A DNA stretch of 31,147 nt from a virus. The notes beneath the pieces are model-generated. The model was not told where the DNA came from. It saw only the letters and a list, made by a program, of their open reading frames with translations, and did not search any database. The DNA lies in UHGV virus genome UHGV-0038737; one strand, written 5' to 3'. Every line of letters starts with the position of its first letter. The first letter of the stretch is position 1. The translations under genes were made by a program, and so were the position numbers. This document shows positions 20,267 to 27,009 of the stretch, piece after piece.

Positions 20267-20469
20267 GCGTAAAATCCTGCCGGTCCCCGGCGTCGTGGAG
20301 TGGTGCCAACCTGTGACTCAAGTTCGGCAATGTATTTTTTCAGGTCACTGACGGAGGTCGCGGTAAACTCAACCCGCCGGCCGTCTTTTTGCACCGTTGC
20401 CACCCGCTTTCCCATCATGAGATCGTGCAACGCAGCGCGGGCGGCATCCAGATCAGTCTGTGTCGCCAT
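20263..20469 (-). CDS. W: Head completion / head-tail joining protein W
   Basis: [51 protein letters not shown]... is near-identical to lambda gpW. Confidence 0.92.
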
Positions 20470-22391
20470 TATTCATCTCCAGATAATGCCCTGGCATAAT
20501 CAGCCAGGGTTTTGTTATTGGTCCGGTTCCCCTCTTCCTCCAGTAGGCTCGCGAGCAGTGAATCAAGATTCAGTTGCCATCGCGAAATACTGATCCGCAG
20601 GGCAGCCAGCGCGTACACGAAGCAGTCCAGCGCCTCATTTCGTCGCTTTTTGCTGTCCCAGACGATTTTCTTACGCCCGTCCACCCATTTTTCAACCTGC
20701 TCCTCAGCAGTAAGCTGCTGCGCCTCAGCCAGATCATAAATTTCGGGGTTATTGGGAAAATGCACGGCACCGGCAAGAGGTTCACTCCCTTCCGGCTGAA
20801 GTGTGAAGCGGTTATAAATCTGCTCCTTTGCGGTATCAGTCCCCACTTCCGTCAGATAAACGCCGTTCTTGTTGCGTTTACGCGGCATATTCGCGACAGG
20901 CTTACCGTAAACGGAAGCCCCTTTAATCGGGATCACGCGAAACAAACCATGCTTTTTTGAGCGATTGTAGACAATGGTGGGGTCAATACCGCCGATATCC
21001 CAGCAGATACGGGATACCGACATTTCCACGCCATTCTTTCGGAGATAGGTTTTGTTAATCGCCTCGTCCACCCTGACGAGGGTCGCTTCATCATCATGAC
21101 GGCCCATAATGATCTGCCGGTCAATCAGCCAGCTTTCCTCACCGGGCCCCCATCCCCAGACGCGCATTTCATATCGATCCAGTTGGGAGTCGATCCCGGC
21201 TGTCAGATAAGCAACACGCTCCGGTACGGATGCCCCGAAGAACTCTTTGCGTTCGGCCATGAGCTCCGCGTCAGGCCGTTCACCAATTTTAGGCTCCCAT
21301 GTTTCGCCCAGAGTGGTGTTCACGAAGGTTTTACGCTTTCCTGTATCCCCTTTCGTTTTTAGCCAGTCTTTAACGATCTGAACCCAGGTGGTAAACGGGC
21401 TGTATGCCGTCCAGATGTGAAACGTCACGCTGTCTGGCGGGTCGATTTCGGTGCCTGTTGATGAAAACCAGGATAAACCGTCGCGCGTCCAGATCCCGGT
21501 GGTGTCGCAGATGTAACGAGCTTCAGTGAAATCCAGCTCCTGCTGCTTAATGACGCAGGCATTATGTTCACACAGGTAAAAGACGCTGGAGGGTTCGCCC
21601 GGTGTCCATTTCAGCCCGAACGGGGTCTCTTTGTCGCCGAATTTAAGGTACTGCTCTTCACCACAGTGCGGACAGGCAACATGAAAACGCATGAAATGCC
21701 CGGACTCGCTGGCAGCACGCTCAATCTGGCAGGTCCCCTTTGTTTTTGGCGTTGAGCCGCGAATAGATTTGGGCCAGACAGACCCCTCAATACGTTTATC
21801 ACCCAGGAACGTCGGGGATCCCTCTTTCTCAATATCTTCATCGAATGCCGCCAGTTCATCGTAACCGGCGACATCGACCGATTTCTCACGATAGTTTTTC
21901 GCCGCTTTACCACCCAGACACCAGAACCCGCGACCGTTGGAGAAGCGTTTCATACTGAGCGTATTGTCCCGGTGCTTTTTTCCATACCAGGGGGCCAGCG
22001 CCAGAAGTGACGGAATATCGCGAATCGTCGGCTCAACATGCGACTTCATAAAGTTTTCGGCGTCACCATCAGTAGGCAGCCAGATAAGGGAATTTCGCTG
22101 CTTGTGCTGAATAAAATACGCATAAACACCCAGCAACATTTTTGAATAGCCAACACGGGCAGACTTAACAACGTTGACCTCACGTATGTAATCGTTACCC
22201 ATCGCATTCATGATCGCGCGTTGAAACGGCAACGTTTCCCAGCGCCCTTCCTGGTAGGCCGACTCTTTGGGGAGATAGTAATTATCGTCTGCCCATTCAA
22301 CCGCCGTTTGCGGCTCAGGTCGGTACAGCGAAAGTAGACCCGCGCGCGCAGAGTGCTGCAGCCCCTTAACCTGACTGTTCGATATATTCAC
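20469..22391 (-). CDS. A: Terminase large subunit A
   Basis: 640 aa, lambda gpA-like. Overlaps the Nu1 3' end by 26 nt as in lambda. Confidence 0.95.
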
Positions 22392-22911
22392 TCAGCAACC
22401 CCGGTATTATTTCATCCAGCGCAGCTGCTTTGTTCATGGCTTTAATGATGTCCTTCTTGAGGAAATCAATATGTCGGTTTTCCAGCTCCGGGAAGCGCCG
22501 CTGAACCGACAGAGGAACTCCATCAAGAATGCTGGCTACTTCTCCGGCCATCCGCGACAGCACGAACGTGCAGAATGCGGTTTCCACCACCTCAGCGGAA
22601 TCTTTTGCATTTTTTAGTTCCTGGGCATCTGCCTGCGCTCGGGTGAGGCGGTGACGCTCATAGTCAATCGTACCAGGCTGAAGGTCGGATTCCGATGCAA
22701 GACGAAGGTCTTCCACCTCCTTCCGTAATTTCTCATTCTCAATCGCCGCGTCGCGTGCGGAATACCATTCGATAGCCGCGGAAGATTCATAGAGGACCTC
22801 ATTACCTTTTCCACCGCCACGTGCTACAGGCATTCCCTGATCCTGCCAGTTCTGAATGGTTCGCACGCTGACCCCAAATATTTCAGAAAGACGCTTTTTG
22901 TTGACCTCCAT
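22366..22911 (-). CDS. Nu1: Terminase small subunit Nu1
   Basis: MEVNKKRLSEIFGVSVRTIQNWQDQGMPVARGGGKGNEVLY... is near-identical to lambda Nu1 (181 aa). Confidence 0.95.
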   Translation of the reverse strand: MEVNKKRLSEIFGVSVRTIQNWQDQGMPVARGGGKGNEVLYESSAAIEWYSARDAAIENEKLRKEVEDLRLASESDLQPGTIDYERHRLTRAQADAQELKNAKDSAEVVETAFCTFVLSRMAGEVASILDGVPLSVQRRFPELENRHIDFLKKDIIKAMNKAAALDEIIPGLLSEYIEQSG

Positions 22912-23110: not shown

Positions 23111-23267
23111 GGATCGCCGGAAAGGACCCGAAAAGATAATGATTATCAATTGCAAGTTATTCCCTTCAAGATAATGCCACCTGGACGGCAATGGCATTGG
23201 CCCGTGTCTGTAATCCATTCATCGGCTGCTTTTTAAGCTCAGATGTATTGCTTTTTGTTTTGCAGAA

Positions 23268-23504
23268 CTACCACCTTGTTACTGCAATCGGAATTGGTTT
23301 CCTGGTAGAGTTCCAAACCCAAATTTTCAGTGGAGGATGGACGGTCATTTTATCCCGTAAAAAATCGCCTGTTGCTGTATCTGGAATGTTTTCAGACTCA
23401 GCAAAACTGATTGATGCCGGGTCTAAAACAGATATCAGTGCGCTATTCGTACCATCCGTTATTTGAACTGGCTCACTACCGATTGTCATTCTTTCTGTTG
23501 CCAT
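23268..23504 (-). CDS. Hypothetical protein (78 aa)
   Basis: ORF MATERMTIGSEPVQITDG... with ATG at 23504 immediately after a G8 tract (the ORF track starts at 23597). Last gene of a three-gene cluster. Confidence 0.45.
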   Translation of the reverse strand: MATERMTIGSEPVQITDGTNSALISVLDPASISFAESENIPDTATGDFLRDKMTVHPPLKIWVWNSTRKPIPIAVTRW

Positions 23505-23507
23505 GTG

Positions 23508-23515
23508 CCCCCCCC
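23508..23515 (-). repeat. G8 homopolymer tract (C8 on plus strand) in the RBS region of the 78-aa ORF
   Basis: Minus strand TAG-GGGGGGG-CAC-ATG: the tract begins in the stop of the 94-aa gene and ends 3 nt before the next ATG. Confidence 0.9.
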
Positions 23516-23799
23516 TACGCCAGTACGTATTCAGGTGTTGATGGATTGATGATAAATTTCTGCGCAGCTTCAGGTATGAGGCCATAGATAACATCAATGT
23601 GATAACCGTCCTTTAGGGTCGGCTCCTTTATCACATTTCCGGCCTCGTCATATTCACCGTCACTGTTATACAGAACGCCCCGCACAGAAAACTGAATAGA
23701 CTTAGTCGGTACTGCCCATCCAGCCCCCTCAGACCACCAACCAGTGGCTGCTCTCGCAGTAGCCTCATCAGGGAATCGTAAATATGTCAGCCTGCTCAT
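23515..23799 (-). CDS. Hypothetical protein (94 aa)
   Basis: ORF MSRLTYLRFPDEATARAATGWWSEGAGW... with start overlapping the stop of the upstream 356-aa gene. No family recognised. Confidence 0.5.
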   Translation of the reverse strand: MSRLTYLRFPDEATARAATGWWSEGAGWAVPTKSIQFSVRGVLYNSDGEYDEAGNVIKEPTLKDGYHIDVIYGLIPEAAQKFIINPSTPEYVLA

Positions 23800-24869
23800 T
23801 ATCTTATGTACTCGATTCGTTGGATGTAGCGCTTACCCCAGTCAGTCGTTGATGCTGGTATTTCAACCTCTTCTGCACCGCCAAAATCGATTTGCTTGGT
23901 CGTTGCGTCGCTATAGTGCAAACGCACAGAGGTTGCAATTCTGCTGGGGTTCTTGATGTTCGCAAAAGCCTTGGATCGTGTTGCAGCAGCGCTGGATGCA
24001 ATGATTGGTGATGTTGAACAGGGATTATCTTCAAGCTGCAGTGTTGCAAACTCCAGAGAATATGATGAATCTCCAACGTAGGTTTCGCCACCGGGTGTGA
24101 TACTGGTTGATGGCCCCATATAGATTATATAGGAAGGTGACTTTACGGATTTTGTCGCAATAACAGTCCCGGAAAACCGTATTACGCCGGGAGAGATAAA
24201 CTCTGCGGTTGTAGTGAGTCCATCAGAAATACCGGTGAATGACACTGACGCATCAGAGATATTTATTACAGATAAAATCTGCGCATCAACAATCAATTGG
24301 TGCGCTAAAATGACAAATGCATACCCTCTCGACTTCTCTGTTTTTTGAATAAAACCGCTAAAGCTGTACTTCTTTCCCGCCGTAACTTTCTGCGGACATG
24401 CAGCGTAGTGTGGCCCTTCCAAATTAGATTCTGTAAGCCTGAATGTCGGGGTATTCAGTATTCTTTCTGCGGAATTACTTATTGCCGCACGCACTGCCCC
24501 TACCCCCCCCGTATAGTAGGTGTTGGTCGCCTGCACTTCAGGCTCATGCCTTCCAACTGCCACACCATTTCGGTACTCAAGCGGCCATACGTCAGGTGCA
24601 GCGAACTGAATAGTTCCGTCAGCTGAGTAGTATGCATGGTTGCTTGCGCAGCTGAACGAAACCCGATAATCCAGTGCAGAGGAGGTAAGATCGATATCGC
24701 TAAGGTCAACCCACTCGCCAGGCGGCAGCGTCATAACATTAGCACCGGGAATAACTATGCCGGATGGAAAACTATCTGATGATGCGCCAAGCTCAGTCAC
24801 ATCAGGGATAAATAAGCCTTTCATAATTGCACCACAAGCGATGATAAATATTTCAAATAAAACCGGCAT
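23799..24869 (-). CDS. Hypothetical beta-rich protein (356 aa; start could be Met16 at 24824)
   Basis: Long ORF with Ser/Thr/Gly-rich composition and no recognisable catalytic or nucleotide-binding motif. Hydrophobic N-terminus. Contains an in-frame G8 tract. Confidence 0.55.
   Translation of the reverse strand: MPVLFEIFIIACGAIMKGLFIPDVTELGASSDSFPSGIVIPGANVMTLPPGEWVDLSDIDLTSSALDYRVSFSCASNHAYYSADGTIQFAAPDVWPLEYRNGVAVGRHEPEVQATNTYYTGGVGAVRAAISNSAERILNTPTFRLTESNLEGPHYAACPQKVTAGKKYSFSGFIQKTEKSRGYAFVILAHQLIVDAQILSVINISDASVSFTGISDGLTTTAEFISPGVIRFSGTVIATKSVKSPSYIIYMGPSTSITPGGETYVGDSSYSLEFATLQLEDNPCSTSPIIASSAAATRSKAFANIKNPSRIATSVRLHYSDATTKQIDFGGAEEVEIPASTTDWGKRYIQRIEYIR
24503..24510 (-). repeat. G8 homopolymer tract inside the 356-aa coding sequence
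   Basis: Coding strand ACG GGG GGG GTA (T-G-G-V). Eight consecutive G. Confidence 0.9.
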
Positions 24870-25183: not shown

Positions 25184-25912
25184 TCAGGCCGCCGCATAGA
25201 GCAATTTCATCTGCCCTTTTACCTGGAATGCCGACATGCAACGCGCTTCGAAATCACGATAATCAGAGCACCCATTGGCAATGCTGGTAACGGCAATGAT
25301 CTGTCGCTCAACCAATGTCAGCGCGTCAGGTTTAAGGTGCTGATGGATTTTGTCTCCCGCAGCCAGCCGTCTTTTAACCTCTGCATATACTTCTGGTGGT
25401 AATACCGGGCCATATACCCACTTGGCACTGATCATCCCAAATAGTGCGGGGCGACGACCTGGTCGATGACGGGGCAGCCCTGACATTTTGAACATCGCAG
25501 AATAAAACGGATCGCTAAACCTCTTTTCCCATGGCTGAGATTTATCCAGAAGGAAAATAGCCTTTATTCTTTCATCGTCGATATGATGAACGGAACCCTG
25601 AATGATTGCGTCAATTTGCTCATCACACCAGATCTCAAAATCTACAGAAAGCCATCGAGCAAATCTGACCGCCAGTTTTGGGTGAAGCCATGTTCCGCCG
25701 CCACGGTCTTTGCGAGCGCGGCTGGTTTTTACATATGTGATATTCCCATATCTACTCTTTAACGCCTCGATGTAACGGACAGTCTCAGGAAGCCTAAGCC
25801 ACTGAGCCGGCTCCTTGTTGAACTTGTCAGCTGCCGCAGTCGCGTCAAACCAGCCATCGTCAGAAAAACGCATGGGATGGCCTTCGAAATCAATCGGGAT
25901 GATATTGGACAT
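25184..25912 (-). CDS. KilA-N domain protein (Bro-N/KilA-N N-terminus, P63C-like C-terminus)
   Basis: MSNIIPIDFEGHPMRFSDDGWFDATAAADKFNKEPAQWLRLPETVRYIEAL is a typical KilA-N N-terminus. The ORF track extends to 25987 and the upstream Met cannot be excluded. Confidence 0.7.
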   Translation of the reverse strand: MSNIIPIDFEGHPMRFSDDGWFDATAAADKFNKEPAQWLRLPETVRYIEALKSRYGNITYVKTSRARKDRGGGTWLHPKLAVRFARWLSVDFEIWCDEQIDAIIQGSVHHIDDERIKAIFLLDKSQPWEKRFSDPFYSAMFKMSGLPRHRPGRRPALFGMISAKWVYGPVLPPEVYAEVKRRLAAGDKIHQHLKPDALTLVERQIIAVTSIANGCSDYRDFEARCMSAFQVKGQMKLLYAAA

Positions 25913-26061
25913 CGTATTTACCTTTTTGGTGATATGAGCCAGTTCTCGCAGACATGGACAGCCCAAGAGCGGCACGATGTAAGCCACCGTCCTGTCTCTG
26001 TCTCATATCCCGAAAAGCTCTTGGTTGATATGCGCACGAGAATGCGCGGTTTACTGCGGAT

Positions 26062-26106: not shown

Positions 26107-27009
26107 TTAAGACTGGATATTCCAAATCATTGCGTTACCGTTATGATTTTCAATGATTTTTGCCAGTGGTGCTCCACCAAAAGAATGCATGTAGCTGTGA
26201 TGTATAGTCAAAACCAAATCTTGAAGTACTTGATCACTTTCAAGTTCGGTAACATTCAACCCAATTTTCTGCGCCTTATCAAAATGAATATGACGCGAGT
26301 GGGTATAGGTTGTGTGATGGTTGTTTAACTCTGAACAAACATGTGTTGCTTTTGATTCTGCCTCAGGATCATTATCAAACATGCCTGTCATAAGCCAATG
26401 CTTAACAATCTCATTTGCCCATTTGATTGCTTTCTCACACTCGCCGATGATCGTCGGGTTTAGCTTTTGAAGAATGAACTGCCACATCTGAACAGCTGCG
26501 GGATTTTGAAAAATTTCCGTCTGCGCACGATTCCATTCTTCAATGATGGCATGGGTGGAGAAACCGTTGAACTGAGGATCAATTGGGCCAATGTTGGACT
26601 GTTTACCCATGATGATTTCATTGGCACAACATGCAAGCATAGTTCCGCAGGACATTGAAATCATAGGAACAATTGCTCTGATGTTAGTTCCAAACTTCGA
26701 CCTTAAGTAATGCCCGATTGATTCCAAAGCGGCAATATCACCACCTGGAGTATGAAGTATCAAATCCAACCCTTTTGATACATCTAAACCATTGATGGCT
26801 GTCATCAACCCGTTCTTATCATCATCAGTCATCTGAGTAAGATGGCGTACTTCTGCACCACCATGCTGTAACCACCCTGAGTAATATGTGATTACATTTC
26901 TTCCAGTATGATTCGAAAGTTGAGATAAGTATTTACGGCGAACCTCATCCATAGGACTTTTATGGGCGAGAGCCGTTATCTCGCCCAGTACGTCGCTCCA
27001 ATTAGGCAT
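26107..27009 (-). CDS. ClpP-fold serine protease, SDH / S49-like family
   Basis: Motifs GLDLILHTPGGDIAALESIGHYLRSKFG, IRAIVPMISMSCGTMLACCANEIIMG and GPIDPQ are characteristic of the ClpP/crotonase-fold SDH serine proteinase family as recalled. AT-rich gene, translationally coupled to the upstream small ORF. Confidence 0.8.
   Translation of the reverse strand: MPNWSDVLGEITALAHKSPMDEVRRKYLSQLSNHTGRNVITYYSGWLQHGGAEVRHLTQMTDDDKNGLMTAINGLDVSKGLDLILHTPGGDIAALESIGHYLRSKFGTNIRAIVPMISMSCGTMLACCANEIIMGKQSNIGPIDPQFNGFSTHAIIEEWNRAQTEIFQNPAAVQMWQFILQKLNPTIIGECEKAIKWANEIVKHWLMTGMFDNDPEAESKATHVCSELNNHHTTYTHSRHIHFDKAQKIGLNVTELESDQVLQDLVLTIHHSYMHSFGGAPLAKIIENHNGNAMIWNIQS

Follow-up and report, generated by a model that had tools for sequence, protein, structure and literature searches.

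A length-variable poly-G tract as the predicted Shine-Dalgarno site of a small late gene in an HK639-like prophage: probably a tolerated slippage hotspot

Does the length of a G homopolymer placed directly in front of a phage gene set how strongly that gene is translated? The question was raised by a run of eight G's on the minus strand of the window (the whole stretch of DNA that was analysed, 31 147 nt). The earlier note had read this strand as TAG-G7-CAC-ATG, with the run starting in the stop codon of a 94-aa gene and ending 3 nt before the start of a 78-aa gene. This reading was exact when checked against the sequence, which runs CTG GCG TAG GGGGGGG CAC ATG GCA. Base G23515 is both the third base of the 94-aa ORF stop codon and the first G of the tract. 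The coordinates of the tract, of the genes around it and of a second G8 run are collected in Table 1. The same intergenic G8 is present in independent assemblies (strains YZMc10-2, ES6 and ECCRA-119 and the related loci L071, L072, L076, L077 and L079), so the run in the window is not a read error. Promoter and terminator scans and an Rfam search gave nothing at the tract. The end of an antisense ORF lies 42 nt away, and the site is free of other overlapping features. A G-quadruplex was rejected as an option, since the site is without four G-runs.

Table 1. Positions of the two G8 tracts and of the surrounding features in the window.
Feature	Position	Strand	Basis
Large terminase subunit	20469-22391		
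Nu1, small terminase subunit	22366-22911		
Antisense 91-aa ORF	23191-23466	+	PGAP annotation
78-aa gene (HK639 gp76 equivalent), minimal cupin / double-stranded beta-helix protein	23268-23504	-	
ATG start of the 78-aa gene, CAC (3 nt) after the tract	23502-23504	-	
G8 homopolymer, predicted Shine-Dalgarno region of the 78-aa gene	23508-23515	-	Sequence; duplex with 16S 3' end, about -11 kcal/mol
TAG stop of the 94-aa gene, one base shared with the G8 tract	23515-23517	-	
94-aa gene (HK639 gp75 equivalent)	23515-23799	-	
356-aa gene (HK639 gp74 equivalent), virion-appendage / spike-fibre-like	23799-24869	-	
Second G8, in frame in the 356-aa gene (ACG GGG GGG GTA GGG)	24503-24510	-	
KilA-N/P63C protein	25184-25987	-	
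SDH-family ClpP-fold serine proteinase	26107-27009	-	

The window represents a lambdoid E. coli prophage of the HK639/phi80 type, and its genes are encoded on the minus strand. The 356-aa, 94-aa and 78-aa genes are tightly packed where the late operon ends, immediately upstream of cos/Nu1, and the ATG of the 94-aa gene overlaps the stop of the 356-aa gene as TAATG. The SDH-family proteinase and the KilA-N/P63C protein are encoded between the lysis genes and this fibre-like module; in strain EC2001, the proteinase region is swapped for a different sequence. In several phage types, the three-gene module has lysis/Rha/KilA-N genes in front of it and the terminase behind it. It is rare, being present in 4 of 5426 complete E. 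coli genomes, and among phage records HK639 is the only one that carries it. Genome contigs were scanned with protein patterns and a DNA pattern without any match, and a second DNA-pattern scan, of viral contigs, gave no contigs beyond the known set.

Both genes flanking the tract have matches in PHROG families: phrog_18574 for the 94-aa ORF (E 2.8e-37) and phrog_4772 for the 78-aa ORF (E 7e-18). The 78-aa ORF is intact in alleles down to 22-40% identity. Its homologues (n = 20, 76-85 aa) have their N-terminus in common, and all of them begin with M-A/T-T-E/R at this start position. Gene callers agree on the start, and the AF2 fold of the protein is confident (pLDDT 95). The 78-aa ORF is a genuine protein-coding gene starting at this AUG. 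Its cupin-like fold was considered as a guide to a specific function and yielded none. In other phages, the homologue is always located directly behind a fibre- or enzyme-like gene, with the upstream stop at most 10 nt from the start. In Enterobacter prophages (L084-L088), a gene for a 620-aa SGNH/GDSL hydrolase protein is followed by the 78-aa homologue and then by a gene for a 485-aa protein. This gene order suggests that diverse enzymes or fibres of the virion surface have the mini-cupin as a partner. In the RefSeq/PGAP records of YZMc10-2, ES6, ECCRA-119 and EC2001, the antisense 91-aa ORF (WP_040092035.1) is annotated, and the 78-aa and 94-aa genes are omitted. The antisense ORF gave no matches, whereas for both small ORFs there are PHROG families, homologues that are conserved and folds predicted with confidence, and its annotation in place of these genes is probably a mis-annotation.

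The junction between the two small genes was compared among relatives. At the homologous position it reads TAGGGGAGCACATG, TAGGGGGAGCACATG, TAGGGGGGAGCACATG, cggagTGAattATG or gagaTGAggaaataacATG, and TGAGGAAAAAATG is shared without change by 10 loci of a diverged clade and by one viral contig. These junctions are ordinary Shine-Dalgarno (SD) sequences that overlap or abut the upstream stop. The variants found are GGGGAG, GGGGGAG, GAGGA and GGAG, with stops at most 10 nt from the start, and the more distant relatives carry ordinary GGAG or GAGGA sites. In the window, UAGGGGGGG pairs with ACCUCCUUA of the 16S rRNA 3' end (-11.2 kcal/mol, aligned spacing 4). This anti-SD pairing, the real gene downstream and the SD sites of the relatives all argue for the proposal of the earlier note that the tract forms the ribosome-binding region of the 78-aa gene; this gene would be translationally coupled to the 94-aa gene upstream. 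Judged from its sequence, the tract is a G-rich predicted SD of a coupled small late gene. It shares with the ordinary SD of a coupled pair a purine-rich complement to the anti-SD, 3-10 nt before the AUG and overlapping the upstream stop. It differs in being a pure G homopolymer, which would pair in part by G-U wobble, and in being unstable in length.

Tract length was tallied in 41 de-duplicated related records with this junction. The interrupted forms G4AG, G5AG and G6AG were found in nine, three and one records, respectively. The pure tracts span G6-G11 across 28 records: G6 (four records), G7 (four, including phage HK639 and strain EC2001), G8 (12, including the window), G9 (five), G10 (one) and G11 (two, one of them a poor assembly with N's). 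Forty of the 41 records have CAC-ATG as the 3' flank of the tract, and the remaining one has TAC-ATG. G6 has the same length as G4AG, and G7 the same length as G5AG, which fits a single A/G substitution. Twelve records share the flank haplotype of the window (280 nt upstream and 237 nt downstream, i.e. 517 identical nt); ten of these have G8, one has G7 and one has G9. Interrupted tracts do not vary within flank haplotypes (8/8). When EC2001 was compared with YZMc10-2 over 4.7 kb, three substitutions were found, and the only indels were deletions at the two G tracts. Between ECCRA-119 and YZMc10-2, one base in the coding tract is the sole difference over 5.1 kb. The length heterogeneity that the earlier note had expected is thus present among near-identical relatives, from G6 to G11.

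Such variation could stem mostly from sequencing or assembly error around a tract that is biologically fixed at G8, since homopolymers are a source of error on several platforms. Four contigs from independent assemblies (L080-L083) start exactly at the 3' end of the tract, so that their 'partial' proteins begin HM..., and another contig (L058) ends 7 nt past it. Assemblers thus struggle at this site, and the breaks may come either from read errors or failure or from length heterogeneity within the sample. One of the G11 records is of low quality, with N's and a partial duplication, and EC2001 is shortened at both tracts. However, the lengths are reproducible within lineages and different between them: about 12 independent records have G8, HK639 and three further records have G7, and G9 is shared by three samples of one project and two other records. 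The span from 6 to 11 is too wide for consensus errors of short-read assembly, and other homopolymers are without indels in the same 4.7-5.1 kb comparisons. The G4AG, G5AG and G6AG forms, moreover, are true sequence variants of the same site. Error as the main source of the variation is therefore improbable. Weighing these points, we take most of the variation to be genuine and heritable, and slow in consensus sequences; assembly errors could account for some of the length differences. In one G11 record (IMGVR_UViG_2654587654_000007, L012 1734-2260), a partial tandem duplication affects the 3' half of the 94-aa gene, with TAGG followed at the join by TGAATATGACG and then by the tract. As this record contains N's, the duplication may be an assembly artefact.

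The effect of length on translation was estimated with a home-made model in which an RNAduplex energy, a spacing penalty (Salis 2009 form) and the local mRNA folding energy were combined. This model is crude and leaves out coupling kinetics and the possible inhibition by over-long SD helices. The SD plus spacing term was -8.8 kcal/mol for G6, -10.3 for G7, -11.2 for both G8 and G9, and -10.9 for both G10 and G11, a difference of 2.4 kcal/mol between G6 and G8. After addition of the mRNA unfolding term, the totals given by this crude model were 0.7-1.0 kcal/mol for G6-G11, a spread of about 0.3 kcal/mol. The predicted change in expression would be about 1.1-fold, and at most about 3-fold if the SD term alone counted.

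The earlier note had proposed that changes in tract length would alter the SD-to-start spacing and the efficiency of translation. This part of its reading was not upheld, since the 3' edge of the run is fixed 3 nt from the AUG and the modelled totals are so close. All of the G6-G11 variants have at least six G's ending at this edge, and any five G's suffice for pairing with CCUCC, with one G-U wobble. The SD would thus be a sliding run of G's that finds a good register at every length from G6 to G11, and the effect on spacing is expected to be weak. The most stable register also takes in the UA of the stop codon, and its spacing shifts with length; this shift is predicted by the model to be buffered by the other registers. 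The stop-to-start distance also changes with length, from 8 to 13 nt, a range that stays compatible with bacterial termination-reinitiation coupling. G8 is the modal length in the lineage of the window (10/12) and coincides with the best predicted SD plus spacing term, so there may be some selection on tract length.

Length also sets the frame relation between the 94-aa and 78-aa genes, and the tract could in principle govern a fusion protein made by readthrough or frameshifting. Ahead of its ATG, the 78-aa frame has no stop for 31 codons and overlaps the 94-aa gene there (as a 109-aa ORF starting with TTG), and with G7 or G5AG both ORFs are in one frame, with TAG alone between them. The frame relation, however, is not conserved: the distance from T(AG) to A(TG) is n + 5, and n = 6, 7, 8, 9, 10 and 11 are all found. 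The TAG persists whatever the length of the tract. A slippery site is absent, and re-pairing in the +1 frame is impossible for the P-site GCG. In distant relatives, the coupled genes are separate and have different stops. The varying frame, the constant TAG and the missing slippery site led us to discard such a fusion, which is extremely improbable.

The reading that we consider probable is that the tract is a G-rich SD turned into a slippage-prone run, the length of which drifts almost neutrally, i.e. a tolerated hotspot rather than an on/off switch. The interrupted forms GGGGAG and GGGGGAG, which persist in many relatives, are probably ancestral. A single substitution at the A position, presumably from A to G, would have given the pure G6 or G7. 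The uninterrupted run would then have been subject to replication slippage, the mechanism that we infer, and would have drifted between 6 and 11 G's in separate prophage lineages. Because the run always ends 3 nt before the AUG and the CCUCC of 16S rRNA could pair with any stretch of G's (G-C plus G-U wobble), length changes would chiefly displace the upstream stop by a few bases, with ribosome binding and coupling left essentially intact. The tract would be at most a fine-tuning knob, presumably close to neutral. If it is merely a tolerated hotspot, this would account for the contig breaks at the tract in several assemblies. The tract may also contribute to the annotation differences among these prophages. 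Under this reading, it would further illustrate how one base change can turn a GGAG site into a run of unstable length.

The presence of a second G8 run in the same module bears on whether the tracts are tolerated or maintained. The two G8 runs, both on the minus strand, are the only G/C runs of at least 7 in the 31-kb window. Runs of length 3, 4, 5, 6, 7 and 8 numbered 496, 122, 25, 3, 0 and 2, and an iid model predicted 10.7, 2.8 and 0.74 for lengths 6, 7 and 8. No other G/C run of at least 8 was found in 367 kb of related loci. Two same-base runs of at least 8 within 1 kb were obtained in 1.6% of 4000 first-order Markov simulations (p ~0.016). Dinucleotide shuffles, a null that ignores the real depletion of G/C runs in the window, gave 1.36 expected G8/C8 matches, and at least two matches occurred in 39 of 100 shuffles. 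The statement of the earlier note that two G8 tracts within 1 kb are unlikely to be due to chance therefore stands for their proximity and against the depletion of runs, but not for their raw count. The pair is notable, yet less overwhelmingly than had been implied. The outlier status of the tracts in a genome depleted of G/C runs could mean that they are maintained, rather than merely tolerated.

Maintenance by selection would make the intergenic tract a contingency locus, in which the length of the poly-G sets a graded or on/off translation of the 78-aa gene via the SD register or the stop-to-start distance. Together with the coding G8, it would diversify the virion-appendage module among progeny phages (bet-hedging). 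Besides the rarity of two such runs 1 kb apart on the same strand of one module, this is favoured by the variation of both tracts among near-identical relatives, in which they are the sole indel sites, by the shift of the UA-of-stop register with length and the 2.4 kcal/mol range of the SD plus spacing term, and by precedents in Campylobacter phage polyG tracts (Sorensen 2021, cited in PMC10877375) and in T2/T4 loci (10.1101/2025.10.21.683753). However, no observed length abolishes the SD, and the modelled totals hardly differ. The length is also stable within lineages, with G8 in 10 of 12 records of one haplotype and G9 in all three samples of one project, a stability that speaks against rapid switching in consensus sequences. 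Fixed GGGGAG or GAGGA sites serve many relatives well, and the stop codon is the only fixed upstream element whose spacing to the AUG would matter. We hold a contingency role of the intergenic tract to be unlikely. If length did tune expression, this would be a rare case of control by a simple sequence repeat (SSR) at the translational level. It would place a contingency locus in a temperate coliphage, on an accessory virion-appendage module, and would add to what has recently been reported on contingency loci of T-even and Campylobacter phages.

The coding G8 in the 356-aa gene is a different case. Sixteen records carry this allele; the coding tract is G8 in 13 of them, G7 in two (ECCRA-119 and L079) and G6 in one (EC2001), i.e. 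it is OFF in 3/16, a count that also favours a contingency system. With G7, the frame reads straight into a TAG and gives a 122-aa fragment, and PGAP calls a 231-aa C-terminal ORF from a GTG located two bases after UAGGGG. A natural two-gene arrangement, with a TAG stop and a GTG restart after UAGGGGCA, was considered for G7 and is not favoured. The other alleles are single ORFs (325-372 aa) and homology to gp17 of Shigella phage Sf11 crosses the tract, so the short forms would be frameshift-OFF states. From its sequence context, the coding G8 appears to be a better ON/OFF switch candidate than the intergenic tract.

The 356-aa protein itself has a GTA_spike_fiber domain (NCBIfam, GTA head-spike-fibre, E 3.7e-11) and matches phrog_11600. 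Among the relatives of its gene (L006-L069), the N-terminal ~110-115 residues are conserved, and the C-terminal parts are unrelated alleles, with products of 325-372 aa. A conserved N-terminus with unrelated C-terminal alleles is a pattern typical of fibre genes. A mosaic breakpoint separates the two parts at about 24520-24540 on the minus strand, with the coding tract 12-27 nt downstream of it. Another C-terminal allele of the fibre-like gene has a G-rich coding stretch, which is GGGGGGAGTGGGGGG in L064 (2032-2046) and GGGGGAGTGGGGGGG in L046 (7612-7634); the two stretches have an equal total length. G runs seem to recur in this fibre-like gene family. Residues 59-354 of the 356-aa protein are homologous to the C-terminal appendage of the Sf11 distal tail protein gp17 (PDB 9OCC, E 1.3e-12). 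This 'extra appendage' projects from the tail, and its function is given as unknown (PMC12724387).

The two tracts might act as a joint contingency system in this temperate lambdoid coliphage, with the coding tract switching the appendage protein and the SD tract tuning the dose of the mini-cupin. Such a joint system is rather improbable. If it were true, each burst would contain particles differing in surface decoration and adsorption.

Classical intergenic tracts change the spacing between two fixed elements, for example -35 and -10. In contrast, the tract studied here is the predicted SD itself and would slide, and no strong change in expression is predicted by the model. At G8, it exceeds the slippage length for uninterrupted G/C runs (~7 or more). 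It resembles the bacterial homopolymeric loci (poly-G/C of Neisseria, Haemophilus and Campylobacter; PMC11868660) in being a G run of slippage length near a gene start and in being polymorphic in length among otherwise identical sequences. It differs from them in its setting, a temperate phage and an E. coli host, where such tracts are rare. Among phages, the A-runs of T2 agt and T4 rIIA are SSR contingency loci (bioRxiv 10.1101/2025.10.21.683753), and hypermutable polyG tracts are described in receptor-binding genes of Campylobacter phages (Sorensen et al., 2021, Cell Rep 35:109214, cited in PMC10877375). These loci have in common with the present one a phage homopolymer in or next to a virion surface or appendage module. 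They are, however, coding tracts with reversible frameshifts and demonstrated phenotypes, whereas the tract at 23508-23515 is intergenic and predicted to be nearly neutral; in the T2/T4 preprint, intergenic SSRs appear only as putative contingency loci (10.1101/2025.10.21.683753). The Campylobacter-phage type, a coding polyG with frameshifted OFF variants, fits the coding G8 at 24503-24510 and not the intergenic tract. It is thus the coding G8 that resembles the receptor-binding polyG of Campylobacter phages (Sorensen 2021, cited in PMC10877375 and PMC11868660) and the T2/T4 loci (10.1101/2025.10.21.683753).
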